Positions 27,475-51,930 of a DNA stretch of 61,578 nt are shown one piece after another; positions within the stretch are counted from its first letter, which is position 1, and the number at the start of each line of letters is the position of its first letter. The stretch covers positions 1-61,578 of the forward strand of contig CALXJU010000004.1 in NCBI GenBank assembly GCA_944388705.1. Reading direction: 5' to 3'. The notes below the pieces were generated by a model. The model made no database searches. It worked only from the letters and a program-made list of their open reading frames with translations, and had not been told where the DNA came from. This stretch comes from an uncultured Clostridia bacterium (GTDB lineage Bacteria > Bacillota > Clostridia > TANB77 > CAG-508). The position numbers were made by a program, and so were the translations under genes.

Positions 27475-27509
27475 TTCCTTGCCCTTCTTTAGTTTAGTTT
27501 TATATTATT

Positions 27510-27539: not shown

Positions 27540-27552
27540 TGTAGTTTTATAG

Positions 27553-28675: not shown

Positions 28676-28684
28676 TACTCCTTT

Positions 28685-29446
28685 CTATTGTGTATTTGTA
28701 TTACTTGTATTTGAGGTATTTGTATTTCTTGCATTTGTATTAGTGTTTGAATTTGAATTTGTGTTTGTATTTGTACTAGTATTTGAATTTGTGTTAGTGT
28801 TTGTATTACCTGTACTAGAATCTGTATTGTTTCCTATACTTGTAGAATTTGAACTTGTTACATCTGTTATATTAATTTTTATATCTTTACATGTAAATGT
28901 TCCTACTAATACATCTGTTGTTTCACCTGCTACAAGCTTAAAGTTTTCAATTTTAAATACTAAAGTAGAGTCTCTTTCAACATCATATAAGAAATCAACT
29001 ATTTGTATGTATCCTCCTGTAACTGTAAATTTTAAATCATATGTTTTACTAACAGAATTATTTAGTGTTACATCCATTTTTAAGTCTACACCTTGTGCTT
29101 TAGCATGATTTCCCATTGCTACCCATATTTTTTCCATTTCGTATTCTTGTATTTTATTTATAGGTTGACCATTTTCGTCTACACCTAAAGCTAATATTTG
29201 CTCATAATTTTCTTTTTCTGCAACTAATTTTTTATACGCCCCTTCTAATGTTGTAATTTCAGAAGGATATTGTGTAGTTCGCAATTTTGAAGCTTTGTCT
29301 ATTTTTGATTCTAAAATTTCATTTTCCTCTTTAATTGCAGGAATACTATTAATTTTTAATCCTCCTAATTCAATTCCATATACTGCTGTATATACAGCAA
29401 GTGCTAATAATAATATTACTAATAATCCTAATAAAATCTTTCTCAT
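28685..29446 (-). CDS. PilO-like pilus assembly protein with an (N/T/S)-repeat tail
   Basis: N-terminal TM segment plus coiled coil, in the position after pilMN; C-terminal NTNTNTNSNTSTNTNTNSNSNTNTN. Confidence 0.5.
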   Translation of the reverse strand: MRKILLGLLVILLLALAVYTAVYGIELGGLKINSIPAIKEENEILESKIDKASKLRTTQYPSEITTLEGAYKKLVAEKENYEQILALGVDENGQPINKIQEYEMEKIWVAMGNHAKAQGVDLKMDVTLNNSVSKTYDLKFTVTGGYIQIVDFLYDVERDSTLVFKIENFKLVAGETTDVLVGTFTCKDIKINITDVTSSNSTSIGNNTDSSTGNTNTNTNSNTSTNTNTNSNSNTNTNARNTNTSNTSNTNTQ

Positions 29447-31056
29447 GGTAAATCACCTTCTATCGTAACAATTATCATACCACCTTGTTTCATACTGCTT
29501 CCTGAAACAACATTTTGAAGTATATTTTCTGTTTTTAATCTTGTTTTAAAATATCCTAATCCTGGATAGGTTGGAGATTGTGCCACTATTACAATATGTT
29601 TTCCAGTAGTATTTTCTATTGATGTAAGTTGTACACTTTCATCTATTACCTGCATTATCTGATTTAATAAATTTGGTATTAGATTTTTACTTGCATTCAT
29701 ATCACTTATTTTATTATTTACTTCTTCAAGGTCTGAAATTAATGTACTATATTCTGTTGTTTTATTATTTAATGTAGTAGTATCTTTTTGAACTCTTGAT
29801 ATCTGTGCATTAATTTTATTTGTTACACTATCTACTTCTTCTTTTTTATCTTGTATCTGACCTGTTAATAAAATTGAAAATCCACTAAAAATTACAATAA
29901 ATATAACTAGTGATATTATCCCTCTTACTAGCCCCATTTCTTGTTTAGATAATCTATCTCCAAAATCATTAAAATTAAAACTTGAGCCTGAAGACTTTTT
30001 AACTGGTTTTCCACTTTCTTTGGAACCTTTTGTAAATAATCCTTCACTAAATGAAGCTTTTTTAAAATTAATTCCTTTTATTCCCTCTCCTAGCCCTGAT
30101 AATGCTAATGATATAGCTGAATTTACTTCAACATATTCTTTTATATTAACTTCTTTTACAAGCCCTTGTACAAAATATGGTTTTAATATTTCACATTTTA
30201 CTTTTCCTAAATATTCTTGGAAATATAAATCTATATTATTTACACATGAAAGTGTTCCTGTAATATATACCTTATTTATTGTATCTGTACTTTCATTTAT
30301 AATCTTTTGTACTTGTCCAACTATATTGTATAATGTTGGCATTATATCTTCTAAATATCTGCTTTGTTCTTCGACAAAATCTTGTACCTCTGCTGTATAT
30401 ATTGTAGTGTTTTGACATATCTCATACGCTTTTGAATAAGAATTTTCTTTTAAATTTATTTTTTCAAGAATTTCTTTACTTCCTTCATCTAATGTTGTAA
30501 TTTCATATACGTTTCCATCTATAACTGTTGTTATTGTTGTTTTGCCCTCTATATTAACAATCAGTGCATTTTCTTTAGGTGGAAAATTGATTAGATTTGG
30601 TATAGACATTGATACTGGTGCAATTGTCCCAACACGATACCCATCTAATCTTTGCTGGATTTTATTTAGTTCAATTTTATTCTCACTTATATTTATTACT
30701 TTTAACTTTTCTTTATCATCAGCATTATTAACTATTGCATATCTTGTTTCTAATGAATTTGGATTATATCCTTTTTCGTTACAATATGTTTCAAATTCTA
30801 ATCTAATAGCTTTTTCCAAATCTTTTTTATTTAGTAGTGAGAACATGTTAAAATATTGATAAGTCTCTTCTGATAAATTAACACTTATCGGGGTTTTATA
30901 ACTATAAGTTTCTTCAACAATCTGTTTAATTGCTTGAGATATATTAGAATAAAACTTAACACCAAAAGAATCGATTTTTATATTTTCTTTTTCTTTTGAA
31001 ACTTTTGCGTATTTAATTAAATTGTCTTCTATATACAATCCTAAATAACTTGGCAT
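29443..31056 (-). CDS. PilM-PilN fusion protein
   Basis: The N-terminal 340 aa or so are actin-like PilM (MPSYLGLYIEDNLIKYAKV). A TM segment (GIISLVIFIVIFSGFSILL) and a coiled-coil PilN-like region follow. ATGA overlap with the next gene. Confidence 0.65.
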   Translation of the reverse strand: MPSYLGLYIEDNLIKYAKVSKEKENIKIDSFGVKFYSNISQAIKQIVEETYSYKTPISVNLSEETYQYFNMFSLLNKKDLEKAIRLEFETYCNEKGYNPNSLETRYAIVNNADDKEKLKVINISENKIELNKIQQRLDGYRVGTIAPVSMSIPNLINFPPKENALIVNIEGKTTITTVIDGNVYEITTLDEGSKEILEKINLKENSYSKAYEICQNTTIYTAEVQDFVEEQSRYLEDIMPTLYNIVGQVQKIINESTDTINKVYITGTLSCVNNIDLYFQEYLGKVKCEILKPYFVQGLVKEVNIKEYVEVNSAISLALSGLGEGIKGINFKKASFSEGLFTKGSKESGKPVKKSSGSSFNFNDFGDRLSKQEMGLVRGIISLVIFIVIFSGFSILLTGQIQDKKEEVDSVTNKINAQISRVQKDTTTLNNKTTEYSTLISDLEEVNNKISDMNASKNLIPNLLNQIMQVIDESVQLTSIENTTGKHIVIVAQSPTYPGLGYFKTRLKTENILQNVVSGSSMKQGGMIIVTIEGDLP

Positions 31057-36804: not shown

Positions 36805-36846
36805 ATTAACAAAAGCACTCCAAAGAGGACTATCCCCTTTAGAGTG
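36805..36846 (-). terminator. terminator at the end of the glycan locus (overlaps the glf stop)
   Basis: CACTCTAAAG/CTTTGGAGTG, 9 of 10 bp, then CTTTTGTT. Confidence 0.5.
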
Positions 36847-37939
36847 TTTTTGTTAAGTCTAATGCTGCTCTGATAACCTTATCCATATCATAATATTTAT
36901 AATTTCCAAGTCTGCCACCAAAAATAACATTAGGTTCTTTATCAGCTAATTCTCTATATTTTTCAAATAAAGAGTTATTTTTTTCGTCATTGACTGGATA
37001 ATAAGCTTCATCTCCCATTTTCCAATCCATTGGATATTCTTTAGTAATTATTGTACCTTTACATTTATTAAATTCAAAATGTTTATGTTCAATAATTCTA
37101 GTATATTTTTCATTATGGCTTGTATAATTAACAACTGCATTACCTTGATAATCATCAATATCTTCATATATCTCATTTTCGAATTTTAACGAACGCCATT
37201 CTAAGTTTCCAAATTTATAATCAAAATATTCATCTATCATACCAGTATATAGAATTTTATCAGCTAGGCTATTATATTTATCTTTTTCTTTTAAATAATC
37301 AACACCAAGTTCTACATCAGCATCTGCTAATAATTTTTCAATTATAACATTATATCCGCCTTCTGGAATTCCTTGATATCTGTCATTAAAATAATTGTTA
37401 TCATATATAAATCTAACAGGTAATCTTTTTATGATAAATGCTGGTAGTTCTTTACAATCTCTTCCCCATTGTTTTTCTGTATATTCTTTTACTAGTTTCA
37501 TATAAATATCTTTTCCAACTAGAGATATTGCTTGCTCTTCTAAATTTTTAGGTTCTGTTATATTATATTCAGCTTTTTGTTTTTCAATAATTTCTTTTGC
37601 TTGTGCTGGAGTTGCAATTCCCCATAATTTTGAAAATGTATTCATATTAAATGGTAAATTGTAGATTTCTCCTTTATAATTTGCAATTGGAGAATTTATG
37701 TAGTTATTAAATTCTGCAAATTGATTTACATATTCCCATACTTCTTTATCACTTGTATGGAATATATGTGCTCCATATTTGTGAACATTGATTCCATTTA
37801 TTTTTTCACAATAAATATTTCCACCTATATGATTTCTTCTATCTATTACAAGACATTTTTTCCCTTTTTTATTCATTTCATATGCAAATACTGCTCCAAA
37901 TAGACCTGCACCAACTATTAAATAATCATATTTTTTCAT
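36839..37939 (-). CDS. glf: UDP-galactopyranose mutase
   Basis: MKKYDYLIVGAGLFGAVFA FAD-binding fold; 366 aa. Confidence 0.9.
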   Translation of the reverse strand: MKKYDYLIVGAGLFGAVFAYEMNKKGKKCLVIDRRNHIGGNIYCEKINGINVHKYGAHIFHTSDKEVWEYVNQFAEFNNYINSPIANYKGEIYNLPFNMNTFSKLWGIATPAQAKEIIEKQKAEYNITEPKNLEEQAISLVGKDIYMKLVKEYTEKQWGRDCKELPAFIIKRLPVRFIYDNNYFNDRYQGIPEGGYNVIIEKLLADADVELGVDYLKEKDKYNSLADKILYTGMIDEYFDYKFGNLEWRSLKFENEIYEDIDDYQGNAVVNYTSHNEKYTRIIEHKHFEFNKCKGTIITKEYPMDWKMGDEAYYPVNDEKNNSLFEKYRELADKEPNVIFGGRLGNYKYYDMDKVIRAALDLTKTL

Positions 37940-37942
37940 AAC

Positions 37943-38905
37943 TTATACCTCTTTTAACTCAAATATTTTTCTATTTTTCTTGTAGAATTCTTCCATTGCT
38001 TTTGTTTGTGGTCCATATGAGAAATGTCCAGCAATTGTATTTTCTGAAACTACTATTGCTCTACTTTCTATCATGCAATATTCACATATTTGTGCTTCAT
38101 CTCTTCCCATATTAGTTCCTTTTTCAACTACAAACCTTCCCATTGCTTCCCATAAATCTCTTGAGAATAATATTGCTCCTATACTAAATCTTATTGGACA
38201 TATTGAATATGCGAATTCTTCTTGGTCAAATTTTTTAGATAATTCATCTATTTGTCCTATTTCTTTCCACATGAATTTTGCTATTTCTGGATTTTTAATT
38301 ATTTTTTCTTCTCCTCCGCCATCATGATATGGTTTTCCAAATTTCTTTTCAAATTTAGCTATTGTATTTGTCTTTTTTAATACATTAACATTTGAATATC
38401 CATTTATAGGCAATAATGGTGCTACAAATCCTACTCTATAATTACTTTCTTCTTCAACTTTTTTATATGTTTCCATTAATTTTGAGAAAAAGTTCTTTGT
38501 TATAAATATGTCTTCATCTATCTTATATATCATTTTAGCTTTTGGATGTAAATTTATTGCTATATTTTGTACTAATGTTACTTTATTTTGTTTTAAACTT
38601 AAATATGACCATTTATTTTTTTCTGCTATTTTATCTAATTCTTCATTATACAAACCTGATGATACTATACATACATCCATATCTTTTGGCATAAATTTTT
38701 CAAGTCTTACGAATACATCTTCCCATAATATTTTTTTATAGCCAGCTATTATTATACATAAGTTTTTCTTGTCTTTTTTTCTGTCAACAAATTTATATGT
38801 TCCCTTTACTCTCCTTTTAATTTCTTTTTCTTGTTTTTTCTTTTTTAATTTGTTATACTTCTCCATGAATTTCTTGTTTTTTTCTAATTTCACAAATATA
38901 TCCAT
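37943..38905 (-). CDS. hypothetical protein, possible GT-A-like glycosyltransferase
   Basis: Lys-rich N-terminus followed by CIIIAGYK...KIDEDIF (DxD-like). No firm family assignment. Confidence 0.35.
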   Translation of the reverse strand: MDIFVKLEKNKKFMEKYNKLKKKKQEKEIKRRVKGTYKFVDRKKDKKNLCIIIAGYKKILWEDVFVRLEKFMPKDMDVCIVSSGLYNEELDKIAEKNKWSYLSLKQNKVTLVQNIAINLHPKAKMIYKIDEDIFITKNFFSKLMETYKKVEEESNYRVGFVAPLLPINGYSNVNVLKKTNTIAKFEKKFGKPYHDGGGEEKIIKNPEIAKFMWKEIGQIDELSKKFDQEEFAYSICPIRFSIGAILFSRDLWEAMGRFVVEKGTNMGRDEAQICEYCMIESRAIVVSENTIAGHFSYGPQTKAMEEFYKKNRKIFELKEV

Positions 38906-38915: not shown

Positions 38916-39653
38916 TCATATCTTGCAAATTTTTGCATTTATTTTTACATTTTTTATTTCTTTCAGGAAATTTTCCATATCGTCATATGTAACTTCTTTA
39001 AATTCTATCAGATTTTTTTTCAGTGTTTTATATTTTGATTCTGCAAGTCTATGTAGTTTGAATATTTCAACTTGTTGTGGCTTGTACTTTTCAAGTAAGT
39101 CTAATATCCTTTTTTTATTATGTTCTTGCAACGTATATTCTTTTGTAACTGGTATTCTGAAAGTAATATTATGTTTTTGTTCAAAAAGTTTTTTAATATT
39201 TTTATAATATAATTCAATATCACCATTTAATACTTTTTTCGCTTCAGAATTATCTAAAATTTTAATATCAACTATAAATTCATCAACATATTTTAAAGCA
39301 ATTTCTAGTAAACTAGTTGGTACAAATAAAGCGGTTTCTATACAAATATTAATATTTTGCTGTTTAAGTCTTTTTAATAATGGTTCTAATTTGTCAAATT
39401 GTAATAACGGCTCTCCTCCAGAAAAAGTAACTCCTCCTCCTGATTTATAAAACTTTTCATCTTTTAAAATTTCTTTTTCTAACTCATCTAGTTCTATATC
39501 ATAACCAAATTCACCTTGAATTTCATATTTTATATTTTCAGGATTTGCACACCATGGACAGCAAATACTACAACCTTTTAAAAATACAGTAGTTCTTATT
39601 CCAGGACCATCTTGAAGCGAAAATCTTTGAATATTAGTAACTCTTACCTTCAT
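38916..39653 (-). CDS. glycyl-radical enzyme activating protein (radical SAM)
   Basis: CSICCPWCANPE (CX3CX2C) near the N-terminus; 245 aa; 20-nt overlap with the upstream GRE gene. Confidence 0.85.
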   Translation of the reverse strand: MKVRVTNIQRFSLQDGPGIRTTVFLKGCSICCPWCANPENIKYEIQGEFGYDIELDELEKEILKDEKFYKSGGGVTFSGGEPLLQFDKLEPLLKRLKQQNINICIETALFVPTSLLEIALKYVDEFIVDIKILDNSEAKKVLNGDIELYYKNIKKLFEQKHNITFRIPVTKEYTLQEHNKKRILDLLEKYKPQQVEIFKLHRLAESKYKTLKKNLIEFKEVTYDDMENFLKEIKNVKINAKICKI

Positions 39654-41655
39654 TTTTTAAAGCCCTTTCTATTAACACATTTTTATATTCTTCTGGCAAG
39701 TCATTAAAGTATGCGCTAAATCCCCAAACTCTTACTATTAAATTAGGAAATTCTTCTGGATGTTCTTTTGCTTTTATTAATGTTTCACTACTTACTACAT
39801 TCATCTGCATTTGAAAAAATCCAACATCTATACTTAATATTAAAAAATCTGTAAATTTTTCAAAATTATTTTCCATAAAACTTGGTGTTACCATGAAGTC
39901 TATAACATTACCATTAAATCTATTTCCACTATAATCTATTTTTGACGCAAATTGAATTAACTCAGTATATGGGTTTGATGTTATATCTGATGAAATGTGT
40001 ACAATAAATGCATCACCTTTTTTTCTTCCATCTAATGAAGCTTCAAAATCTTTTGATTCATCTATATATGATGGTGCACTTAGTCCAAACTTTAATTTTC
40101 CACCTATCCTATTTGTTTTATTTTCTAGCATTTCGTCTACCCATTTAGTTATCATATTTGTAATTTCTAATACTTTATCATCATCTTTTCCATATCTAAT
40201 TCCTTGGTCTTTTAGTTGAATATTTTCATTGTTTTCAAAATTATTTTTTCTCAACTCATTTAATTCACTTAATGTATATTTTTTGTCTTGAAATACAAAT
40301 TTGTTTATATTTATAATTGAATTTACTGTATTTGCAAGTGATACAGAAGTAGCCCCATAATTATTATATATTGCTCCCCCTTCTGTAACATCTATTTCGA
40401 CTTGATTACAGTGTGGTATAAATAAAGACATTACTGGATCTGTTTCAAATTTTCTTGCATCTAATTCAGCAAAAAATTCATCTATATATTTTTCTAAATA
40501 AGTTTTGTATTTTTCCATTAATTGTTCTTGATTTTTAATCTCTTCTAAGTTTTCTTTATTAAGCATTTCAGTAAATGGTTTCAAAAATACTATTGTTTTC
40601 ATATTATTTTGGTCAAATGATTTTCCTGTAATTAATGGCTCCCAACATGCTGCTGTAACATAACTATATGCATCTTTTTCATCATATCCGAAATTTATTA
40701 ATTGTGGAATTACTACTTCATCATTTGAAAATAGTGGACATCCTATTCCTGTTTTTATACATTTTACTGATGTTTCCATCAATTCTCTTGGCATATTTTT
40801 TGCAACTCTTAATAATACTTTTGGGTCTGGTAGTTGAAGTTTTTCTGTTTCTTCTATAAACATATATGTTAAATCATTGCAAAAGTATTCTCCATTAGGT
40901 TCTTTTCCTCCTAATATGATTACTTGTCCTGTGTCACCTAACAATGCATTACTTTTAAACCAAAAGTTCTCATGCAATAATTTCATAAATTCATTTATTA
41001 AGCTTCGTGCTTCTTCTTTTGTAATCTTATTTTCTTTTATATCTTTTTTATAATATTTATCTAAAATTTTGTCAAGTCTTCCTAATCCATTTAAATGATG
41101 TCCAGTCTGCCATACAATTTGATTATAAAATAATATTCTTTGTAATGCTTCTTGAAATCCATCAGCTTTTTTATTTTTTATATTTTCTAAATTATTAGCA
41201 ACTTGCTCATTTGGAGCTATTTTTTTCTCTTTTTCTATTAATTCTTCTATTCCTAATAATAGTTGTTTTTGATTTTCTTTATATTCCCCATCCTTCATGT
41301 TTTCATTTTCTTTTTGCATTTCTTCTAAACTTTTTTCTAATCCAATTTCATAATCAATTGTAGTGTTCTCAATTTCAAAATTTTTGATGTTTAAAATTTT
41401 TAATGGGTCAAGATAATATATAAATCTGTCACTATTTCTTTTTATTTTTAACTTTTGAAATATTTTTCTAATTTGCATTCCCTTTGATAGTTTTGTACTT
41501 GGCATATAAAATTTAAATATTCCTTTTAATGCAAATAAAATAGTTTTGGTCATATTTCTATATTTTCTATTATATTTATAAACTATTACTGTAAAATTTG
41601 ATAATTTCTCGCTTTTATTAATTATCTTATTAATTAATTCTATAATTTTATTCAT
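39634..41655 (-). CDS. glycyl radical enzyme (PFL-like superfamily), short form, Cys-x-Glu type active site
   Basis: C-terminal glycyl radical motif IVRVWGFSAYFNDL. Cys loop VTAACWEPLITGK resembles GCVEP of GRE eliminases. Also ILGGKEPNGEYFCNDLTY and CPLFSNDEVVIP blocks. Confidence 0.8.
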   Translation of the reverse strand: MNKIIELINKIINKSEKLSNFTVIVYKYNRKYRNMTKTILFALKGIFKFYMPSTKLSKGMQIRKIFQKLKIKRNSDRFIYYLDPLKILNIKNFEIENTTIDYEIGLEKSLEEMQKENENMKDGEYKENQKQLLLGIEELIEKEKKIAPNEQVANNLENIKNKKADGFQEALQRILFYNQIVWQTGHHLNGLGRLDKILDKYYKKDIKENKITKEEARSLINEFMKLLHENFWFKSNALLGDTGQVIILGGKEPNGEYFCNDLTYMFIEETEKLQLPDPKVLLRVAKNMPRELMETSVKCIKTGIGCPLFSNDEVVIPQLINFGYDEKDAYSYVTAACWEPLITGKSFDQNNMKTIVFLKPFTEMLNKENLEEIKNQEQLMEKYKTYLEKYIDEFFAELDARKFETDPVMSLFIPHCNQVEIDVTEGGAIYNNYGATSVSLANTVNSIININKFVFQDKKYTLSELNELRKNNFENNENIQLKDQGIRYGKDDDKVLEITNMITKWVDEMLENKTNRIGGKLKFGLSAPSYIDESKDFEASLDGRKKGDAFIVHISSDITSNPYTELIQFASKIDYSGNRFNGNVIDFMVTPSFMENNFEKFTDFLILSIDVGFFQMQMNVVSSETLIKAKEHPEEFPNLIVRVWGFSAYFNDLPEEYKNVLIERALKNEGKSY

Positions 41656-43111
41656 TCACAGTTCCCTTTCCTAGTTTATTTTTTACTGTTACGACAACTT
41701 GATTTATTATGTCATTTAAGAATTTATCTTTCAATATTAATAATATTACAAAATAAATGATTGCTCCTATTGCAATTAAAATAAATGTATTTAATATACT
41801 TGGTGATATTAGTTTAGAAATATTTAATACTATTACATACATTATTAATCCACTTATTAGATATTTTATTGATAATTTTAATACATCTAAAATTTTTATG
41901 TCTTTTCTCATATATATAAAATGTACACCTAATATTGTAAATTCTGCTAATACTGATGAAATTGCTGCTCCAACTGTTCCTATTAAATTTATTAATATAA
42001 AATTAAATATTACATTTACAATTGCACCTATTGTTACTGATATTGTGTAATTTTTTTGTTGTTTTGTTTGTATTAAATATTGAATTCCTGTTACATTATT
42101 TAGTCCTATAGCTAATAATATTGGGCTTGTTGCAATTAATAATTGTATAACTGGTTCATATCCCTCTCCATAAAACCATGGTACTAAATTGCTTGATACA
42201 GCCATTATACCTAGAGTTATAGGTATTCCTAACATCCACACTATATTAAATGCTTGCATTAAATATTTTTTTACATCTTCTTTTTTATTTTCTGCAAATG
42301 CATTTGCTATTCTTGAATTCATTACTGTTCCTAATGCCGTTACTACTAACATTGCTGTTTTTACTATTTTTTGAGCTTGCTCATAAAACCCTACATCTGA
42401 CATATTATTAGTAATGTTTCCTATCATAGTTTTATCTAATACTACATATATTTGTGTTGCAATTTGTGGTACAAATAATGATAATACTGGTTTTATATGT
42501 TTTTTAAATTCTAATGTTTTTAATGATATTTTTTGCAACATTTTTGGTAAATATAACCACATTGTTGCATTTCCTAATGCATTTGCTAATACATATATCA
42601 ACATGTATTTCCATAAATCTGCTTGTGTTTTTACAAATACAAATATACATACTAAACTTAAGATTTTTACTACTAAGTTTCTTATTACAGTTTTGCCAAA
42701 ATCTTCAATTCCTTGATAATACCAACTTATATCAAGTGCATTTGCTAATAATTCTAATAATAAGATTGTATAATATGTTGTATATTGTCCTCTTATACAA
42801 AATGTTATATAAAATGTTACTGATGCTATAGTTAGTGTTATAAATCTTGTTATTACAATCTCCCAAAATGTTTTACTTTGTTTTGTTTGATTATTTTGAA
42901 CATATGCTATTTCTCTTTGTCCATACATTGCAATCCCTAGTGTTCCAAATAAAACAAAATATGTTACTATTGATAATGTATAACCATATATCCCAATGTT
43001 TTCTGCTCCTAATACTCTTGATAAATATGGTGTTGTTATTAATGGTAATACAATTGTTAACATCTGATATATTAAGTTATATATGTAATTTTTTGCTATG
43101 CTTTTTTTCAC
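41648..43111 (-). CDS. wzx: Wzx-type oligosaccharide flippase (MOP superfamily)
   Basis: 487 aa with about 12-14 TM segments and a typical polysaccharide-biosynthesis-protein N-terminus; GTG start. Confidence 0.75.
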   Translation of the reverse strand: MKKSIAKNYIYNLIYQMLTIVLPLITTPYLSRVLGAENIGIYGYTLSIVTYFVLFGTLGIAMYGQREIAYVQNNQTKQSKTFWEIVITRFITLTIASVTFYITFCIRGQYTTYYTILLLELLANALDISWYYQGIEDFGKTVIRNLVVKILSLVCIFVFVKTQADLWKYMLIYVLANALGNATMWLYLPKMLQKISLKTLEFKKHIKPVLSLFVPQIATQIYVVLDKTMIGNITNNMSDVGFYEQAQKIVKTAMLVVTALGTVMNSRIANAFAENKKEDVKKYLMQAFNIVWMLGIPITLGIMAVSSNLVPWFYGEGYEPVIQLLIATSPILLAIGLNNVTGIQYLIQTKQQKNYTISVTIGAIVNVIFNFILINLIGTVGAAISSVLAEFTILGVHFIYMRKDIKILDVLKLSIKYLISGLIMYVIVLNISKLISPSILNTFILIAIGAIIYFVILLILKDKFLNDIINQVVVTVKNKLGKGTVNE

Positions 43112-43133: not shown

Positions 43134-45158
43134 TTATCTTACAAGTACTTTTTGTATTGTTCTAATTGCAATTTGTGGTAATACTTTTTGTTCTGTATTA
43201 TATACTGGCATTTCTTTTATTTTTAAATGATTATTTTTTTCAAGCCATACACTTAATAATCTTTCTGATAAAAATCCAAATATTCTTTTATCATAATCTG
43301 TATATTTTGAAATATCTACTCTTTTTTCTAATTCAAATAAAATGTCAAATAACCATTTATAGTATTCATCAAATATTTCTTTTCGAGAAATAAACATATT
43401 GTATAAATATAATTTTCTTCCATTTGCAATTTTATCAAATGCTTCTATATATTCTGGATGTTTTTCTTGTATAATTTCTCTACATTTTTCAAAATCTTCT
43501 ATATGATGAAATTTCCCATATGCATTTTTTACAGTATATTTCACAATTCTTTCTTTTTCTGGTAGTATTATATCATATTTTTCTAATATTTCTTCTATAT
43601 CTTTTTTATTTAATATATTTTCTTTGCTATTATTGTTTTTCTTTTTAAAGAAATATCTTCTATAATGTGTAAGCCCTGTAATATCTGATTTGTCATTTTT
43701 CCATATCCAATATGCTGCTGTTAATTCACAAAAGTTTGGATTTTTTTCTGCTATATTGTCACCTGTGTTATCACGTACTTTTGTGAAACTTTCTTTTTTC
43801 CCTACTTGTATTGGTGTATATATTTCTTCTTTTGGAAATTCTGCTTCTTTGTGTGATACTATGTAAACTTTGGAAAAAAAGGGGACGGTTCTCTTTTTTC
43901 CCTTTTGGCAAATTGGGGACGGTTCTCTTTTTTCCTTTTGGGCAAAAAGAGAACCGTCCCCTTTTTTCCCTTTTTGCTCATATAGTTTTATATATTCTTG
44001 AAATTTTAATCTTTTATCATATTTTTTAGATGCTTGCAAACATTGTTCTGTTTTTTTAGGTTTGCCTTTTAAATCTTTAACAATTTTTAACACAGAGTCT
44101 ACATCTCCTTGTTCTACAACAAATCCCCATTCTTTATCAACACTTTCTACACTTCCACCTGTTTTATATGTAATTATTGGTGTTCCACATGCTATTGATT
44201 CTAAATTTGTTGTTGGAAAGTTTTCTTCATATGTAGGATTGAAAAATATATCTGCAGTTGTATAAAGTTCTGCTAATTGTTCAATATTTTCTGTTCTTGA
44301 TATTCCTATTATATTTTTAGGTAATTTTTTTAATTGTCTTTTATTCAAACCTACTAATACTATTTGGAAATCATCACTTAGTTTTTCTGATAATCTTATA
44401 AATGATTCTAATCCTTTTCTTTTTTCCCAAACACTTGCAACTCCAAGTATTATAAATTTATTTTCAATATTATGTTTTTTTCTGAAATCTCCTTTTGTTG
44501 GTTTGAAGTTTTGAAGATTTATTCCATTGTTTATTACAACTACTTCTTTATCTTTTAAATATGATTGTTTTACTAAATCTGCTAACCATTGTGATGGTGT
44601 TACTAATGTTAAGTTTTTTATATTATTAAATAATCTTTTTTTCTTTTCATAATTTATTTTTGAGTTATCAAATATTAAACTTGGTGGATATGTTGTTTTT
44701 TGTGGACATTTTTCACATCCTGTTTTCCATTTATCACATTTTGCATAATCAAAATATGTGCAATGTCCTGTTATTGCCCAACAATTATGCATTGTGTAAA
44801 TTACAGGTTTATCTATTTTTGCTAAATATTCTAATAGTACTTCTATATTTATATAATATCCTAATAAACTATGTAATTGTATTATATCTGGGTCATATTC
44901 TTCTATTTTTTTGATTAGTTTTTTTGTTGCATGTGTTGATAAAAAAGCACTATTATCAAATATCATAGATATTCCTATGTGAAATAAGTTATTTATTTTT
45001 CCACATATTTTTATTGTTTTTACACCTTCTGGTGCTCCTCTTCTTCCATATGCAATTATTCCTTCATGTCCATTTTCTTCTAATACATTATATAAGTCTA
45101 CTGCTATTTTTCCAGTACTACAATTTCCACATACTGCATTTATTTGTAAAACTTTCAT
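43134..45158 (-). CDS. bifunctional glycosyltransferase: GT4 domain fused to a DUF4422 domain through a repeat-encoded linker
   Basis: MKVLQINAV... GT4 (about 400 aa, ENFPTTNLESIACGTPIITY), linker KGKKGDGSLFAQKEKREPSPICQKGKKRTVPFFS, then a DUF4422-like domain (VYIVSHKEAEFPKEEIYTPIQVG). Start at ATG 45158 behind AAAGGAGAAG. Confidence 0.75.
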   Translation of the reverse strand: MKVLQINAVCGNCSTGKIAVDLYNVLEENGHEGIIAYGRRGAPEGVKTIKICGKINNLFHIGISMIFDNSAFLSTHATKKLIKKIEEYDPDIIQLHSLLGYYINIEVLLEYLAKIDKPVIYTMHNCWAITGHCTYFDYAKCDKWKTGCEKCPQKTTYPPSLIFDNSKINYEKKKRLFNNIKNLTLVTPSQWLADLVKQSYLKDKEVVVINNGINLQNFKPTKGDFRKKHNIENKFIILGVASVWEKRKGLESFIRLSEKLSDDFQIVLVGLNKRQLKKLPKNIIGISRTENIEQLAELYTTADIFFNPTYEENFPTTNLESIACGTPIITYKTGGSVESVDKEWGFVVEQGDVDSVLKIVKDLKGKPKKTEQCLQASKKYDKRLKFQEYIKLYEQKGKKGDGSLFAQKEKREPSPICQKGKKRTVPFFSKVYIVSHKEAEFPKEEIYTPIQVGKKESFTKVRDNTGDNIAEKNPNFCELTAAYWIWKNDKSDITGLTHYRRYFFKKKNNNSKENILNKKDIEEILEKYDIILPEKERIVKYTVKNAYGKFHHIEDFEKCREIIQEKHPEYIEAFDKIANGRKLYLYNMFISRKEIFDEYYKWLFDILFELEKRVDISKYTDYDKRIFGFLSERLLSVWLEKNNHLKIKEMPVYNTEQKVLPQIAIRTIQKVLVR
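43872..43979 (-). repeat. family A repeat, copy A3, lying inside the coding sequence
   Basis: GGGGACGGTTCTCTTTTTTCC occurs twice, followed by GAGAACCGTCCCC on the plus strand. The units match A1 and A2. Confidence 0.85.
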
Positions 45159-45186
45159 ATCTTCTCCTTTTTTTATGTTTATACTT

Positions 45187-45277
45187 GTATTTATATATAT
45201 TACTATTGAATAAGCAAAGACCCCCGACGAAGACCCCAAATATGTTTTTGCTATGAAATAGTAATATATATAAATAC
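45187..45277. repeat. family B palindromic element, copy B2
   Basis: Perfect 20-bp arms GTATTTATATATATTACTAT/ATAGTAATATATATAAATAC. Inner stem AGCAAA/TTTGCT. Loop GACCCCCGACGAAGACCCCAAATATGTT. Confidence 0.85.
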
Positions 45278-45290: not shown

Positions 45291-47150
45291 TTATATATTA
45301 ATTTTTATTTCACACTGTTCTGAAAATAAATCTAAGTTTGGATTAAAATATGGGTCTCCTTTTTCTAATTCATCTTTCCATTTACTTTCGAACAATTTAA
45401 TTTCTCCATTAAATCTCTCTAATTTTTCTGGTGTATCTTCATAACCTCTTGACTTAGATTCATAATGAAATAATCTAGCAAAAGGTGTATAAACAACTAA
45501 CTTTTGAAGTTTACGTATTTTCATACAGAAATCCACATCATTAAATGCTACTTTAAATTTTTCGTCAAGTCCTTCTACTTTTTCATATAGTTCTTTTTTG
45601 GTCATAAGGCAAGCTGCTGTAACTGCTGAATAGTTATTAATTACTGCCACTCTTCCAAAATAGCCTGGATTTTTATCAGCAATTAATCTGTTTACATGTC
45701 CTGCAATTCCACCCATTCCAACTACAACACCTGCATGTTGAACTGTTTTATCACTATAAAGTAGTTTTGCTCCTACTATTCCAACATCTTCTCTTTGACA
45801 TATTGATAGCATTTCTTCAAGCCAATCTTTTGTTATTACTTTTATATCATTATTTAGTAGCAATAAATATTCACCATTTGCATATGTAACTCCAAAATTG
45901 TTTATTTTTGAATAATTAAATTCTCCTTCATATTTTATAATTTTTGCAAATGACTTTATTTTCTCATAATATTTAAATGTACTTTTTTTGGTACTATTAT
46001 TTTCTACAATTATAATTTCATAATTTTTATATGTTGATTTTAATATTGAATTTATTGCTCTTTTTAAGTATTTTACAGAGTCTTTATTTGGTATTATTAT
46101 TGATATTAATGGTTCTCCTATTACTTTATATTTAATTCTATATGAACCTAATGGTTTTATACTTTCTACTTTTTCAATAGGAAGTTCTAACCTTTTACAA
46201 TGTTCTTCTATTGCTCTTCTTCCTGCTTCTATTGCATAATTTTTTGTTTCCATATTTTGAGCAGTTGAAGTAGAGTGTATTCTCCAATGATATAATATAT
46301 CTGGAATATGTTCTATTTTATTAGTGTTTTCTGTAATTCTTAATATTAAATCATAATCTTGTGCACCATCAAATTCTTTTCTAAAGCCTCCAATTTTTTC
46401 AACTAATGTTTTTCTTATTACACTAAGATGACAAATATAGTTATTGCTTCTTAAAAAATCTGGTGAAAAGTCTGGTTTGAAAAATGGATAAAATCTATTT
46501 TCTACATTTCCTTCAAATTTATCTTCATCACTATATATAAAGTCTGTTTCTGGTTTTTCATTTAATTTTTTCACAACTTCATTTAATGCATTTGGTGCAA
46601 TTATATCATCATGGTCAACTAATGCTAGAAATTCTCCTGAAGCCATTTGTATTGCTTCATTTGAATTTTCTGATATTCCTTTATTTTCTTCTAGTCTTTT
46701 ATATTTTAATCTTTTATCATTTATATTTTTCACATATTCTAATTGTGTTTCACTAGCATCTACAAGGCAAACTTCCCAATTTGTATAAGTTTGCTCTTGT
46801 AGACTTTTTATATAATCTATGAAAAATTCTTTTGGTGTATTATATAATGGTGTTATTATACTTATTAATGGCTCATATTTAAATTCTTTATTTTCTTTTA
46901 TTGTAGCTTTTTCAGAAATCCATCTATTATATTTTTCTTCTTGATATTCTTTACTTTCAGGTACTACTAATTTATAAAATGAATATTTAAAACCTTTTAA
47001 AAATCCTATTTCTTTTACTTTTTTGATAAACATTTTTCTGTTTTCTTTGTTTTTTAACATTCTATAAATATATTGTATTGCTCTTCTTCTAATACTTCCT
47101 ATTGGCATTAAAAAATTTATAATAGAATTTTTTATGTTTGTTATTTTCAT
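45291..47150 (-). CDS. two-domain GT2 glycosyltransferase
   Basis: Two GT-A modules (ISIITPLYNTPKEF...DHDD and ISIIIPNKDSVKYL...NNDI). Confidence 0.75.
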   Translation of the reverse strand: MKITNIKNSIINFLMPIGSIRRRAIQYIYRMLKNKENRKMFIKKVKEIGFLKGFKYSFYKLVVPESKEYQEEKYNRWISEKATIKENKEFKYEPLISIITPLYNTPKEFFIDYIKSLQEQTYTNWEVCLVDASETQLEYVKNINDKRLKYKRLEENKGISENSNEAIQMASGEFLALVDHDDIIAPNALNEVVKKLNEKPETDFIYSDEDKFEGNVENRFYPFFKPDFSPDFLRSNNYICHLSVIRKTLVEKIGGFRKEFDGAQDYDLILRITENTNKIEHIPDILYHWRIHSTSTAQNMETKNYAIEAGRRAIEEHCKRLELPIEKVESIKPLGSYRIKYKVIGEPLISIIIPNKDSVKYLKRAINSILKSTYKNYEIIIVENNSTKKSTFKYYEKIKSFAKIIKYEGEFNYSKINNFGVTYANGEYLLLLNNDIKVITKDWLEEMLSICQREDVGIVGAKLLYSDKTVQHAGVVVGMGGIAGHVNRLIADKNPGYFGRVAVINNYSAVTAACLMTKKELYEKVEGLDEKFKVAFNDVDFCMKIRKLQKLVVYTPFARLFHYESKSRGYEDTPEKLERFNGEIKLFESKWKDELEKGDPYFNPNLDLFSEQCEIKINI

Positions 47151-47177: not shown

Positions 47178-48704
47178 TTATATGAAAAATGTTGTCATCA
47201 TTGCTAGATATACACCAAAATTGGCAATTAGTGATACATTTGTTAATTCATGTTCTTGTATATTAATTCGTTTTTTATTTATAAATAATATTGCAAGTAA
47301 CAATAATGGTACAAAATATCTTCCTTGTACTCCAACTATTACTCCATTTTTGAAGCTTGTATTATATACATACATTGCTGTACTTATTAATACATATGAT
47401 AATACGATTATTCCTGCTGGAATAAATTTTTGCATAAATGTTGTTTTTTCTTTATTTTCATCACTTAATAATGAGATTATTGTAATTATTATATATGCAA
47501 GTGGTATTATTGTATATGGTGATACTTGATTATGACATAAGAAATGTCCTGCAAACATATTTGTTGCATAATCAAAACATGAATCTATTGTTGTTCTAAA
47601 TAGTACAAATAAATATCCTATTGGATTTGTATATATCCATGTGTTTGTATTTGTTGCTTCTCCTACATCTACACTTATATCTGCTGTTTTCATCCACCAT
47701 ATTGCTGATATTATACCTAATATTATAAATATTGCTAAAAATCCATATTTTCTTTTTGTGTTTTTGAAGCATTCTTTAGGTATTAATAGTAATAGTCCTA
47801 TTACAGGTAAATATGCCATTTTTGATATTGCTATTATAAATGTAAGAATTGCAAATATGACATAATCTAATTTTTTTATTTTTTCTTTTGTATGTCTATA
47901 ATACATTACATAACTTAACATTAAAAATGTAGACACAAGTACTATATTATCTGCTGAAAAACTTGCTGAATATGATATTACAACTGGCGAAAGTAATACT
48001 ATTGTTGCAAATAATTTGTGTGATGGTAATTTTTTTATTCCCCATCCTAATAGTAATACTGTAATTACCAATCCTGTAAGTCGTCCTAACATTGCTGTTA
48101 TATATGGTCTTAAATTAAAGAGCATTCCTATTTTTACTCCAAGTGCTTGTGGGAAATAGCTTGTACCATGATATGTTCCAACTGTATTTATAATAGTTGT
48201 TTTTTCTGGTTCTAATTCAATTTGCATCATTTCTCTTACATCATAGTATTTTTTATATTCTCTTCTTTTTGTTTCACTATTTAATTGTACCATATCAACA
48301 AATGATTGTGGTATTTCTGTTGTATACCCCATCTCTGTTACTGGAGAGATTATTTCTCCTTTTGCTACTTGATATGTTCTATAAAAATGTGCAGGTTCAT
48401 CACTTTGTGCAAATAATGGTATTACAAATATGTATATTCCACCAATTATAAGTGCAAGTATAATATACGCAATATGCATTTCTACTTTTTTAAATAATTT
48501 TTTTGAAACAATTGTTAATGCTATTATTACTATTCCTATTAGTACTGAAGCTATTAAAAAATATTTTAAATGATTTCCTCCTAATAATCCTTGATTTTCT
48601 AGATTTACTTTTAAGTCTAAATAATATGTTCCTATAAATAATAAGATTGCTATTACATAATATAAAATTCTACAACTTACTATTTTCTTTAATATTTTTT
48701 CCAT
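47178..48704 (-). CDS. DUF2142 family polytopic membrane protein (GT-C-like)
   Basis: AQSDEPAHFYR motif in the first external loop and many TM segments. Start at ATG 48704 behind GAGGA; the ORF extends to 48716. Confidence 0.65.
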   Translation of the reverse strand: MEKILKKIVSCRILYYVIAILLFIGTYYLDLKVNLENQGLLGGNHLKYFLIASVLIGIVIIALTIVSKKLFKKVEMHIAYIILALIIGGIYIFVIPLFAQSDEPAHFYRTYQVAKGEIISPVTEMGYTTEIPQSFVDMVQLNSETKRREYKKYYDVREMMQIELEPEKTTIINTVGTYHGTSYFPQALGVKIGMLFNLRPYITAMLGRLTGLVITVLLLGWGIKKLPSHKLFATIVLLSPVVISYSASFSADNIVLVSTFLMLSYVMYYRHTKEKIKKLDYVIFAILTFIIAISKMAYLPVIGLLLLIPKECFKNTKRKYGFLAIFIILGIISAIWWMKTADISVDVGEATNTNTWIYTNPIGYLFVLFRTTIDSCFDYATNMFAGHFLCHNQVSPYTIIPLAYIIITIISLLSDENKEKTTFMQKFIPAGIIVLSYVLISTAMYVYNTSFKNGVIVGVQGRYFVPLLLLAILFINKKRINIQEHELTNVSLIANFGVYLAMMTTFFI

Positions 48705-48705
48705 T

Positions 48706-49632
48706 TTAATCCTCATTTCTCTTGAATTGATTTAAAATTAATTCATATTGTTGTTTGTGTTTTTTTACTATTACATCTAATATTACACCACATATAAATG
48801 ATAATATTGCTGATAACATTATAAATCCTCCAACTATTAATGTTGGAAATCTTAATACAAGTCCTGTTTTAAAATAATCATTAAATACTGGTATTACAAA
48901 TATTAATGCTATTATTGTAAGTATTATTGCAACTATATTAAAGAAGAAAAATGGTTTATATTCTTTAAATAGTGTTGCTATCATTTTTAATACTTTAAAT
49001 CCATCTTTATATGTGTTTAATTTTGATACACTTCCTTCTGGTCTATCTCTATATGTTACTGGCACTTCTTGTATTAGAAAATTCTTATCTACTGCATGTA
49101 TTGTCATTTCTGTTTCTATTTCAAATCCTTTTGATAATACTGGATATGTTTTTACAAATTCATAACTAAATGCTCTATATCCTGTCATTATATCTTTTAT
49201 TTTGTTTTTAAATAATTTGTTTATTAAAAATCTTACTATTCTATTTCCAAAATTGTGGAATGGTCTTTTATTTTCTGTAAAATATGTTGATGATAGTCTA
49301 TCTCCTACTACCATATCTGCTTTTCCTTCTAATACTAGAGCACACATTTTTCTAGCATCTTCTGCTGGATATGTGTCATCTCCATCTACCATTAAATAGC
49401 AGTCTGCGTCTATTTGTCTGAACATACTGCGAATTACATTTCCTTTTCCTTGTCTATATTCATATTTAACTATTGCTCCTGCTTTTCTTGCTATTTCATC
49501 ACTTCCATCTGTTGAGTTATTGTCATATACATATATATCTGCTTCTGGCAATTCTTTTTTGAAGTCTTTTACTACTTTTTCTATTGTTTTACTTTCATTA
49601 TAACATGGTATTAATACTGCTATTTTTGACAT
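48706..49632 (-). CDS. GtrB/CsbB-like polyprenyl-phosphate glycosyltransferase (GT2 with two C-terminal TM segments)
   Basis: IAVLIPCYNES...MVDGDDTY followed by two C-terminal TM helices. Confidence 0.75.
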   Translation of the reverse strand: MSKIAVLIPCYNESKTIEKVVKDFKKELPEADIYVYDNNSTDGSDEIARKAGAIVKYEYRQGKGNVIRSMFRQIDADCYLMVDGDDTYPAEDARKMCALVLEGKADMVVGDRLSSTYFTENKRPFHNFGNRIVRFLINKLFKNKIKDIMTGYRAFSYEFVKTYPVLSKGFEIETEMTIHAVDKNFLIQEVPVTYRDRPEGSVSKLNTYKDGFKVLKMIATLFKEYKPFFFFNIVAIILTIIALIFVIPVFNDYFKTGLVLRFPTLIVGGFIMLSAILSFICGVILDVIVKKHKQQYELILNQFKRNED

Positions 49633-49821: not shown

Positions 49822-51930
49822 TTATCTAAAAATTGTAATACTATGGTTTTGGGTCCTTAATTTTAACTCTTCTGGTACTAATTTAATTTTTACTGTATCA
49901 TAATCTATTCCATCTAGTTTTTTCTCATAATTAATTGCTTTTCCATCTGATTTAAGATGTAATGTATCAATTATCTGTTCTTGTCCATTTTTAGAAGCTA
50001 CTACATTAACTGTAACAGTATCTTGTAGGTCTTTATTTAAATATCTTCCATTTATCGTAACGTTAAAATTTATTTTGCCCTCTTGAGGTGTTAATGTTAG
50101 TTCATTTTCATCATATGTTAACATTTCTAAAGTATTATGTGCATTTTCATCATATTTTACTTTTACTATATAAATATAATCAACATTATCTAAAAAGCTA
50201 ACATTTGTAAGAGTATCTACCACTTCAGTAATTTGGAAATGATATCTATTTAAATAATCTAATGTATCTTTTAATTTAAATTCATATATTGGCATATAAA
50301 TATCATTATTTAATACTAAATCCCAATACATTTTGTAAGTTTTTTCTGTTTTTCCCATTTTAGTTCCTATTTGCAGTTCAACTAGTCTATCATCTACATT
50401 AAGTAATGATGTTACACCACTATCATCTGCTAATACTCCCCAAACTCCATCTATATCATATTTTTCATTTGTTCTATCTTTTAATAATATTGTTTTCTTT
50501 ACATTTTGTTTCCAATTTGCAATAGCTGATTCTGAATTATTAAAAAATATTTGTATATAATTTCCTCCGCTTCTACTATATACTACATATTTATATAATC
50601 CGGCGAATGAGCTTCCACATATTATTGCTGACATTAATACTGTTATTACTAATTTACTATTTTTAAATGCATTTATTAATATATAAATACATGCTATACT
50701 TGCAAATATAGGTATTATTCCTGCATATCTTGTATAACCTATTATAAATAGTTCCCAAACAAAATATAAATACATTAATAAAATATAAAATGTTAAATAT
50801 TTTTTATTTATTTGTTGTTTTTTTATTAATTTTTTATATACAACTTCATATATTATTCCAATTATTATTATTGCATATCCTATAGCAAACATTAAATCAG
50901 TATTTGCTGTTTCATATGCATTTCTTGGCCTTTTTATAATGTAAAATGGCCATAATAAAAATTCTAATATATTTTTTGGTCCATATCTGTCATCAGCCCA
51001 ATTTTCTTGCATGAAATATTCTGATTTAAATATTGCATTATAATATGGAAATACTGGACTTCCTGTTTGTATAATTGCATCTACTGCATATGGTAATAAT
51101 GGTATTACAAATGTTATTACTAATAGCAAATAATCATATATTTTTATATTTTTTATATCTTTTATATTTATTATTAATAAATATACTAATGGTCCTAATA
51201 TATAGATTGCATTTGTTAGTTTAGTACATACTGCTAGTCCTACTACATATGCTAATATATATAATCTCGTTTTTTCTTTGAATATATCTTTTCCTTCAAA
51301 AAAGATTACATACATTACTTCTAATAATAATGCTAATGAAAAATTATCTATGTAATATGTACCTAATTGTTCTAATATTATAAATACTCCTAGTGGTAGT
51401 ATTGATAATAATGATATATATTTTTCGTCAATTTTATTTTCTAATATTTTCATTAAATATTTTTTTATTTGATAATATATTATAACAATTAGAAAATATC
51501 CAGGTAAAGTTCCTAATCTAAATCCTAATAATGCTCTAAACATATAAAATACTCTATCTGCAATAGGATATACAAATGATGTTAATGTTCTTCCTGGGAA
51601 AAAGTTTTCATTTATTTTATCTGCAAATGGATTTTCTTGCAAATATAAATGATAACTATAGGTATCCCAAAATGTATCTGGATATATTATTGTTAATCCT
51701 GTTATTACTAGTATTATTGCTAAAAACACTAAATCAAATTTATGAAAATTAGTTTCTACTTTTATTTTTTTCTTTTTTATTAATAATGTTACAATTGTTG
51801 CATTTATAATTAATGCTATTATATTTCCTACAATATAATTTGCTTTAAAAAAATATATTAAATTATCACATATTACTACTTGTGTTAATAATATTATTAA
51901 TATCAATAAGTATAAATTAATTTTTTTCAT
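49822..51930 (-). CDS. large polytopic membrane protein with a C-terminal extracytoplasmic domain (GT-C-like candidate)
   Basis: About 14 TM segments then a soluble region of about 240 aa. Start at ATG 51930, 8 nt after AGGAGA; the ORF extends to 51936. Confidence 0.5.
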   Translation of the reverse strand: MKKINLYLLILIILLTQVVICDNLIYFFKANYIVGNIIALIINATIVTLLIKKKKIKVETNFHKFDLVFLAIILVITGLTIIYPDTFWDTYSYHLYLQENPFADKINENFFPGRTLTSFVYPIADRVFYMFRALLGFRLGTLPGYFLIVIIYYQIKKYLMKILENKIDEKYISLLSILPLGVFIILEQLGTYYIDNFSLALLLEVMYVIFFEGKDIFKEKTRLYILAYVVGLAVCTKLTNAIYILGPLVYLLIINIKDIKNIKIYDYLLLVITFVIPLLPYAVDAIIQTGSPVFPYYNAIFKSEYFMQENWADDRYGPKNILEFLLWPFYIIKRPRNAYETANTDLMFAIGYAIIIIGIIYEVVYKKLIKKQQINKKYLTFYILLMYLYFVWELFIIGYTRYAGIIPIFASIACIYILINAFKNSKLVITVLMSAIICGSSFAGLYKYVVYSRSGGNYIQIFFNNSESAIANWKQNVKKTILLKDRTNEKYDIDGVWGVLADDSGVTSLLNVDDRLVELQIGTKMGKTEKTYKMYWDLVLNNDIYMPIYEFKLKDTLDYLNRYHFQITEVVDTLTNVSFLDNVDYIYIVKVKYDENAHNTLEMLTYDENELTLTPQEGKINFNVTINGRYLNKDLQDTVTVNVVASKNGQEQIIDTLHLKSDGKAINYEKKLDGIDYDTVKIKLVPEELKLRTQNHSITIFR

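Follow-up and report, generated by a model that had tools for sequence, protein, structure and literature searches.

A short glycyl radical enzyme and its activase in surface-glycan loci of anaerobic bacteria and Methanobrevibacter: a candidate module for tailoring galactofuranose

Why should a radical enzyme be encoded in the midst of a cell-surface glycan operon? The question is raised by 61,578 nucleotides of low-GC (~26%) chromosomal DNA from an uncultured, spore-forming Clostridia-like bacterium (contig CALXJU010000004.1 of assembly GCA_944388705.1; this whole stretch is called the window below), in which the genes for a glycyl radical enzyme (GRE) of 673 amino acids (aa) and for a radical SAM activase (AE) lie among those for glycosyltransferases and exporters. 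An earlier note, made from the sequence alone, had proposed that the pair makes or modifies a sugar or polyol building block of the polymer and is unlikely to act in central fermentation. Here we report that the short GRE is a component of surface-glycan loci that recurs across taxa, and comparison of these loci suggests that it most likely tailors a cell-envelope sugar rather than feeding fermentation. As to which sugar, we lean, with some reserve, towards an accessory module of strict anaerobes in which GRE and activase would tailor a galactofuranose (Galf)-containing surface glycan by redox-neutral 1,2-elimination or isomerisation.

The window protein (39634..41655, minus strand) is a member of the GRE superfamily, in its pyruvate formate-lyase (PFL)-like branch. 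Both family profiles singled out as a check in the earlier note match it: PF02901 (PFL-like; E = 9e-74), of whose 647 positions 221-637 align to aa 137-525, and PF01228 (Gly_radical; E = 1e-12) over aa 564-651. Its AlphaFold2 (AF2) model has a pLDDT of 92.7 and a pTM of 0.92, and Foldseek matched this model to more than 40 GRE chains at TM scores of 0.74-0.80 and a probability of 1.00, eliminases and isomerases alike, with no clear favourite. The Gly loop, R642-V-W-G645-F-S-A-Y-F (39706..39732, minus strand), starts at residue 642 and holds the putative radical site G645, which is invariant in family alignments A1, A2 and A4. The Cys loop, A335-A-C337-W-E339-P340 (40636..40653, minus strand), starts at residue 335; in the HMMER alignments to solved GREs from which all our active-site comparisons are drawn, its counterpart is the G-C-V-E loop of glycerol dehydratase (C433/E435) and of PflD, with C337 as the presumed site of the thiyl radical and E339 as the presumed base. 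Such a Cys-x-Glu (CXE) motif marks GRE eliminases and isomerases (PMC13450708, section 5.6), and C337-W-E339 supplies it here. ACWE occurs in 78 of 83 family sequences (C337 included) and RVWGF in 77 of the 83, where other GREs have RVAGY or RVSGY, and the Cys and Gly loops of the short GREs carry two family-specific Trp residues. With identities in the family falling as low as 32%, Cys, Glu and Gly are still conserved, as are the further polar residues D241, Q244, N350, H553, S555, N583 and D586.

The enzyme is ~100-170 aa shorter than solved GREs (764-850 aa), and most of the deficit is N-terminal: the N-terminus of the short GREs is ~70-90 residues shorter, and position 77 of the family profile falls on residue 145 of glycerol dehydratase. 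Residues 1-75 (41431..41655, minus strand) form a strongly basic, helical segment of net charge +17, the remainder of the protein having -26, and begin with an amphipathic helix (residues 1-18); to judge from this composition, the segment possibly serves as a tether to the membrane or to a partner. The basic N-terminus is conserved (median charge +14 in the window clade and +13 in Methanobrevibacter) and is missing from a clade of Lachnospiraceae GREs. In that clade (L045:9462-9896, L053:9482-9907 and 13 other loci) a ~130-170 aa protein with a GxGxxG Rossmann-like motif and a weak match to 2-Hacid_dh_C is encoded directly upstream of the GRE. The RVWGFSAYF signature near the C-terminus, the Cys-x-Glu arrangement in place of the Cys-Cys of PFL, and the short length had all been pointed out in the earlier note, and all three stand.

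Could the enzyme nevertheless be a known GRE in unfamiliar surroundings? Assignment to a known function was rejected, as every NCBIfam equivalog lies far below its cutoff and identity to every solved GRE class is 19-25% in searches of PDB sequences and folds. None of the equivalogs for GD/PFL2, CutC, HypD, HpfG and HpsG is passed; the best score is 261 bits with TIGR01774 (cutoff 678), and the CutC, HypD and PFL (TIGR01255) models give 177, 173 and 45 bits against cutoffs of 1050, 1100 and 994. Among solved structures the sequence is most similar to PflD (8id0, 8yjo), followed by glycerol dehydratase and CutC, the match to PflD 8id0 having an E value of 1e-49 by phmmer and of 1.9e-74 by profile search at ~23% identity. 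The short GRE with its own activase forms a so far undescribed branch of these oxygen-sensitive enzymes.

The glycan setting recurs far beyond the window. Relatives of the window GRE number more than 1500 at E <1e-10; of the top 120, almost all have 654-696 aa and hardly any is named. A scan of one genome per species gave 123 relatives, and 80 loci were retained, in which all open reading frames (ORFs) were clustered and the clusters annotated with Pfam. Hosts in this sample include metagenome-assembled genomes (MAGs) of Clostridia and Bacilli, Lachnospiraceae, Muribaculaceae, Eggerthellaceae, Selenomonas, the spirochaete Breznakiella homolactica and 14 Methanobrevibacter MAGs, with [Clostridium] aerotolerans, Murimonas intestini and Pilosibacter fragilis among the cultured carriers; the closest genome is an uncultured Clostridia MAG (L001) whose GRE is 94% identical to that of the window. 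At least one glycan gene is present in 76 of the 80 loci, the remaining four being contigs of less than 6.6 kb, so that the neighbourhood comparison proposed in the earlier note comes out in its favour across bacterial phyla and in Methanobrevibacter. Over the 80 loci we counted family 2 glycosyltransferases (GT2) in 65, Wzx in 47 (directly upstream of the GRE in 33), the UDP-galactopyranose mutase Glf in 41, DUF4422 in 27, GT4 in 20 and a 320-aa protein of GT-A fold in 18; Bac_transf, acyltransferase_3, LicD, cytidylyltransferases, a pyruvyl transferase and CapD-like dehydratases also occur. A transporter, aldehyde dehydrogenase or microcompartment context, as expected of a catabolic GRE, was found in none of the 80. 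Neither these neighbourhoods nor the equivalog scores and identities above point to a known catabolic GRE with non-glycan surroundings, which the earlier note had given as a reason to abandon its proposal.

The archaeal occurrences are genuine. On the Methanobrevibacter contigs, one side of the GRE-AE pair carries genes for an archaeosine tRNA-guanine transglycosylase and an archaeal NAC, and the other side a glycan cluster with glmS, Glf, Wzx, GT2, DUF4422 and GT8. The archaeal GREs form a single clade with ~53% identity to the window clade. Four genes downstream of the Methanobrevibacter activase (c20, c39, c31 and c40) were considered as further parts of the module and rejected as housekeeping genes (tRNA modification, NAC). 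On one contig labelled Anaeroplasmataceae (JAEDCM010000047.1; L049) the GRE shares 96% identity with its counterpart in a Methanobrevibacter MAG (L047), probably through mis-binning or else by very recent transfer.

The activase (245 aa; 38916..39653, minus strand; PF04055, PF13353) overlaps the GRE gene by 20 nt, as the earlier note had seen. Its radical SAM motif is C28-x3-C32-x2-C35 (39549-39572, minus strand), and it scores 207 bits with TIGR02494 (glycyl-radical enzyme activating protein), over the curated cutoff of 174, and 135 bits with TIGR02493. Positions ~50-100 of the TIGR02494 profile are unmatched: by its alignment the protein is an activase of the PFL-AE type, lacking the ferredoxin-like insert typical of most eliminase activases. 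An activase was found in 69 of the 80 related loci by ORF clustering and in 70 by tblastn. There is none in loci L051, L052, L058 (Methanobrevibacter), L073, L075 and L077, each extending 3.7 kb or more downstream of the GRE, and in one Methanobrevibacter MAG (L027:12066-12840) the gene is broken into two ORFs of 73 and 194 aa. A 659-aa HAD-like neighbour (c33) was tried as a hidden activase and rejected, as it has no CX3CX2C motif. Proteins of ~660-690 aa with an N-terminal HAD-like DxDxT motif recur beside the GRE or in loci with fused GREs (L075:4581-6560, L077:11913-13892, L070:11929-13914 and L081:3191-5254).

A tie between the GRE and glycosyl transfer is seen most directly in fusion proteins, for which 1.8 billion cluster representatives were searched. 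Short GREs of 630-720 aa make up ~100 clusters at 50% identity, and canonical GREs of ~790-800 aa first appear at ~208 bits. Three of the proteins recovered (P0256, P0265 and P0280; ~988 aa) have a GT2 domain N-terminal to the GRE. This GT2-GRE fusion is real and conserved: clustering at 90% identity gives 42 clusters of proteins with 982-1001 aa, which share 47-100% identity with the query P0256, are drawn from NCBI, JGI, ENA and Logan and lie on contigs of up to 549 kb. The best model for the fused GT2 domain is the galactofuranosyltransferase GlfT1 (8e-22 vs 2.7e-11 for the next). In the fusion loci the fusion gene stands beside Wzm and Wzt with the activase next, and three of four distinct fusion contexts hold Glf along with GlfT2-like or DUF4422 genes; one fusion context (L083) has no Glf within 10 kb. 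Two predicted single polypeptides (P0297, L087:1139-4516, and P0336) have a Wzx domain N-terminal to the GRE, which we treat as a lead only. Directly after the activase, the fusion loci encode large three-part proteins (L081:13857-16493, L083:13828-16065 and L085:13731-16280) that combine a 4Fe-4S ferredoxin, an FrhB/FdhB C-terminal flavoprotein domain and a polysaccharide pyruvyl transferase; they might supply electrons, or make up a module for reductive pyruvylation or for lactyl ethers.

The fusions also bear on whether the pair works for the glycan at all. GRE and activase might instead be a catabolic or fermentative pair that travels with glycan loci, or the GRE a catalytically dead structural relic, and indeed its nearest relatives are all catabolic enzymes and six loci have no activase despite sufficient sequence downstream. 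Set against this are the glycan character of nearly all neighbourhoods and their want of any catabolic context, the conserved in-frame GT2 fusions, the overlap of genes with their neighbours in the operon, the conservation of Gly, Cys and Glu, and an activase that passes its curated cutoff. We therefore give this explanation hardly any weight. The role in surface glycans rather than in central fermentation, for which the earlier note had argued from the window, is supported by the recurrent loci and the fusion clusters together.

Which sugar, then, is the likely substrate? The count that bears on this was made in the 36 fully sampled loci, those in which the GRE is flanked on either side by 8 kb or more: Glf is no more than 10 kb from the GRE in 24 of them, and Glf or DUF4422 in 28. 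At least five gene orders involve Glf (GRE-AE-Glf, GRE-AE-c7-Glf, Glf-Wzx-GRE, Glf-DUF4422-GRE and fusion-AE-x-Glf), and these are spread over different clades, including the spirochaete and the archaea, which argues for selection on the linkage rather than inherited synteny. The c7 of the second order is the 320-aa GT-A protein, encoded in the window between activase and glf (37943..38905, minus strand). It belongs to no Pfam family; its 775 homologues are all without a Pfam domain and labelled 'hypothetical', and it has an invariant D130-E-D132 (DED) motif. The AF2 model (pLDDT 93.9) matches K4CP, GnT-I, hyaluronan synthase and TarP, all of GT-A fold, at Foldseek TM scores of 0.40-0.47. As c7 adjoins glf in loci with and without a GRE, it follows Glf and not the GRE; a part as dedicated transferase for the GRE product was rejected on that ground, and c7 is probably an unclassified family of galactofuranosyltransferases. 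Loci L089 and L090 have Glf, the 320-aa glycosyltransferase and Wzx, are otherwise similar, and lack the GRE-AE pair, so that the pair looks like an optional module or decoration of Galf-containing glycan loci.

A radical tailoring of Galf could run as follows. Under anoxia the activase would place a radical on G645, from where it would move to C337; the C337 thiyl would abstract a hydrogen from a hydroxyl-bearing carbon of the sugar, E339 would deprotonate the hydroxyl of that carbon, and the resulting ketyl radical would expel the vicinal oxygen substituent. Once C337 had given the hydrogen back, the product would be a deoxy-keto or deoxy-aldehydo sugar, made without a cofactor or reductant from outside. 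The likeliest target would be a Galf unit made via Glf, the exocyclic C5-C6 diol of which is a glycerol-like 1,2-diol, and from it a 5-deoxy-6-aldehyde or a 6-deoxy-5-ulose would arise. The activase is the one enzyme other than glycosyltransferases that accompanies the GRE consistently across the 80 loci, which fits a redox-neutral dehydration or isomerisation. The form of substrate that we favour is Galf newly added to a polyprenyl-linked glycan, at the cytoplasmic face of the membrane and before export: the basic amphipathic N-terminus, the N-terminal GT2 and Wzx fusions and the exporter-adjacent genes would all suit action at the membrane on a lipid-linked intermediate. UDP-Galf is equally compatible with the data.

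Several observations weigh against Galf as the substrate, or against the chemistry just outlined. Neither Glf nor DUF4422 lies within 10 kb of the GRE in eight of the 36 full loci, five of which are also without a cytidylyltransferase and LicD, and the link to Glf is qualitative, the counts being those of GRE-bearing loci. The match of the fused GT2 domain to GlfT1 amounts to 78 bits, far under the curated cutoff of 330, and the Wzx-GRE fusion P0297 comes from one 10.9-kb contig only and could be a frameshift or assembly artefact. In the active site, the acid pair of the diol dehydratases is lacking, with Asn97 and Asn351 invariant or nearly so in the short GRE family where glycerol dehydratase has His164 and Asp447; on this chemistry, another conserved acid would have to serve (D241, H553 or D586 being candidates), or the leaving group would not be a simple hydroxyl. 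Finally, we know of no glycan with a 5-deoxy or 6-deoxy-5-keto hexofuranose from these organisms.

Some of these points would be met if another activated sugar (UDP-Glc, UDP-GlcNAc or pyranose UDP-Gal) were radically deoxygenated to a keto-deoxy sugar and Glf were merely a frequent neighbour. The eight loci without Glf and DUF4422 and the fusion context L083 would be explained, GT2 is the commonest neighbour after the activase, and the polar invariants, rich in Asn, Asp, Gln, His and Ser, would suit any sugar. We nonetheless hold this to be unlikely: Glf is adjacent in several rearranged orders and in clades as distant as the archaea and the spirochaete, the GT2 of the fusions resembles GlfT1 most, the window is without a further gene for modifying nucleotide sugars, and the loci share no reductase or aminotransferase that could act next.

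The substrate might also be a polyol or polyol phosphate substituent (glycerol phosphate, ribitol phosphate or their CDP forms), the terminal 1,2-diol of a teichoic-acid-like decoration being dehydrated; GRE dehydratases classically take glycerol and propanediol (PMC13450708, section 5.6). The sole support for this from the loci is a minority, chiefly in Lachnospiraceae, with cytidylyltransferase genes (IspD-like or TagD-like; 9 of the 36 full loci) or LicD (5 of the 36). The window and most other loci have neither gene, and the active-site invariants are identical in loci with and without them, from which a single substrate is to be expected; the missing His/Asp pair of glycerol dehydratase argues in the same direction. 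We regard a polyol as quite improbable. The earlier note's 'sugar or polyol' is thus upheld in its link to glycan loci, and narrowed in that the comparative data favour Galf over CDP-alditols.

Galf thus remains our preferred substrate. Taken to its full extent, the proposal would be that of a first biosynthetic PFL-like GRE, associated with the membrane, that converts Galf (probably polyprenyl-linked) to a deoxy-keto or deoxy-aldehydo hexofuranose new to envelope glycans, and that horizontal transfer has carried between gut Firmicutes, spirochaetes and Methanobrevibacter; with so many particulars, we put it forward tentatively, as a possibility that may well fail in one part or another.

How is the pair set within the window's own glycan machinery? 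Every gene from 36.8 to 61.4 kb is on the minus strand, forming one long glycan operon. As described in the earlier note, GRE and activase sit between a flippase and glf with glycosyltransferases on both sides and small gaps, to which we add that the c7 gene separates activase from glf. The Wzx-type (MOP) flippase gene (41648..43111, minus strand; PF01943, E = 4e-27) overlaps the GRE start by 8 nt, and gaps of 10 nt and 3 nt separate the activase gene from c7 and c7 from glf. Glf itself (36839..37939, minus strand) scores 426 bits with TIGR00031 (cutoff 304) and matches PF03275 at E = 7e-82. Directly after glf, an intrinsic terminator-like hairpin with a 14-bp stem and a T run (36816..36846, minus strand) closes the operon, and beyond it lies the infC promoter (36773-36745), matching the consensus at 12 of 12 positions.

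Upstream of the flippase gene, and likewise on the minus strand, the operon encodes a bifunctional glycosyltransferase (43134..45239) of GT4 (PF00534) and DUF4422 (PF14393, E = 6.5e-86), a GT111-type galactofuranosyltransferase domain, then a double GT2 (45291..47150; PF00535 in two stretches), a DUF2142 membrane protein (47178..48716; PF09913, E = 1e-47) and a GT2 resembling polyprenyl-phosphate hexose synthases (48706..49632; AglJ-like; PF00535; 237 bits with TIGR04182, under its cutoff of 325). We take the DUF2142 protein to be a putative GT-C-like partner in a polyprenyl-phosphate-sugar side-chain system. A 704-aa ORF (49822-51936) follows, with neither a Pfam nor an NCBIfam match, and, by Pfam scan, a double GT2 (51917-53887), a 553-aa methyltransferase-domain protein (53936-55597), a GT2 (55603-56583), a metallo-beta-lactamase fold protein (56595-57464), a Wzt ABC ATPase with Wzt_C domain (57394-58746), a DUF6077 protein (58775-60598) and a Wzm ABC-2 permease (60620-61411). 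One operon thus holds a Wzx flippase, a Wzm/Wzt ABC exporter (57394-61411) and a polyprenyl-phosphate-sugar GT2 with DUF2142 (47178-49632), which presumably reflects a main chain made by the ABC route together with side-chain or second-polymer branches. Elsewhere the window encodes serS, purA, gltX, RNase J, SpoVAD, IMPDH and infC, cadherin-like and dockerin-domain proteins (1358-4754, minus strand) and a type IV pilus cluster (19298-31056, minus strand) in which ORFs 27553-28074, 28685-29446 and 29443-31056 have no family match.

This setting is not described in the literature that we searched. All characterised PFL-like GREs are bacterial, and all are catabolic, acting on pyruvate, glycerol, choline, hydroxyproline, sulfonates, aromatic acids, hydrocarbons and anhydro-sugars (PMC13450708); the same June 2026 review of the superfamily contains no occurrence of 'polysaccharide', 'glycan', 'UDP' or 'nucleotide sugar', in keeping with the earlier note's statement that no characterised GRE is dedicated to surface glycans. 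Within the full texts searched for GREs in glycan, nucleotide-sugar, galactofuranose or Methanobrevibacter settings, no description of the short GRE family was found. If our reading is right, glycyl radical chemistry extends to biosynthesis, and abundant gut anaerobes and methanogens are predicted to bear a new sugar modification at their surface, which could affect how they are recognised by the immune system, their phage receptors and any serotype-like diversity. For archaea, this would be the first PFL-like GRE to which a role can be assigned, and a modification made under anoxia only would be an unusual environmental gating of envelope chemistry. The GT2-GRE fusions, each a single polypeptide, and the carriers [Clostridium] aerotolerans, M. 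intestini, P. fragilis and B. homolactica would offer tractable systems.

Among known enzymes, one parallel is offered by PflD/YbiW, GRE isomerases defined only recently, which cleave the C-O bond in the ring of anhydro-sugar phosphates and convert 1,5-anhydromannitol-6-P and 1,5-anhydroglucitol-6-P to 1-deoxyfructose-6-P (PMC13450708, section 5.7). They have a CXE Cys loop in common with the short GREs, and theirs is a redox-neutral reaction on a carbohydrate that needs no partner enzyme (PMC13450708, section 5.7). PflD and the window enzyme also share a Gly where glycerol dehydratase has Tyr339 (Gly243 here; T-G in 'PTGY' vs 'DTGQ'), which fits a larger pocket. In contrast, PflD still has His and Asp where the short GREs have Asn97 and Asn351, and PflD/YbiW are catabolic enzymes of ~765-810 aa ('anhydroglycolysis'), whereas the short GREs, of ~640-700 aa and with a different N-terminus, stand in biosynthetic glycan operons.

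The C-O 1,2-eliminases, B12-independent glycerol dehydratase and 1,2-propanediol dehydratase, are the best structural matches (1r8w, E 3e-36; 5i2g, TM 0.79), share the CXE motif, and act on 1,2-diols that resemble the Galf side chain. However, three glycerol dehydratase residues are replaced in the short GREs (His164 by Asn97, Asp447 by Asn351 and Tyr339 by Gly243), the loops read A-C-W-E-P and RVWGF rather than G-C-V-E-P and RVAGY, a microcompartment or aldehyde-processing context is lacking, and the activase is without a ferredoxin insert. The dehydratase and lyase likeness drawn in the earlier note therefore holds for the CXE loop and fails for the acid pair, and with both His164 and Asp447 replaced by Asn the window GRE is not a classical diol dehydratase. 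To PFL and its activase the pair is alike in the size of the activase (245 aa), which has no extra clusters, and in the ten-stranded barrel fold and glycyl radical domain; it differs in having an A-C-W-E loop where PFL has its Cys-Cys pair, and in a context that is not central metabolism.

The nearest parallels in organisation come from outside the GREs. Terminators of the WbdD type are likewise tailoring enzymes that work with glycosyltransferases in glycan pathways dependent on ABC exporters or Wzx. In WbbM (GT111+GT8), of which DUF4422 is the GT111 or UDP-Galf transferase domain, a glycosyltransferase is joined to a second catalytic domain, the genes lie beside those of an exporter, and the polymers are of galactofuranose (PMC12269835), all of which resembles the GT2-GRE fusions. 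Neither WbbM nor the WbdD-type systems employ a glycyl radical, whereas the domain joined to the glycosyltransferase here is a radical enzyme, sensitive to oxygen and served by its own activase.

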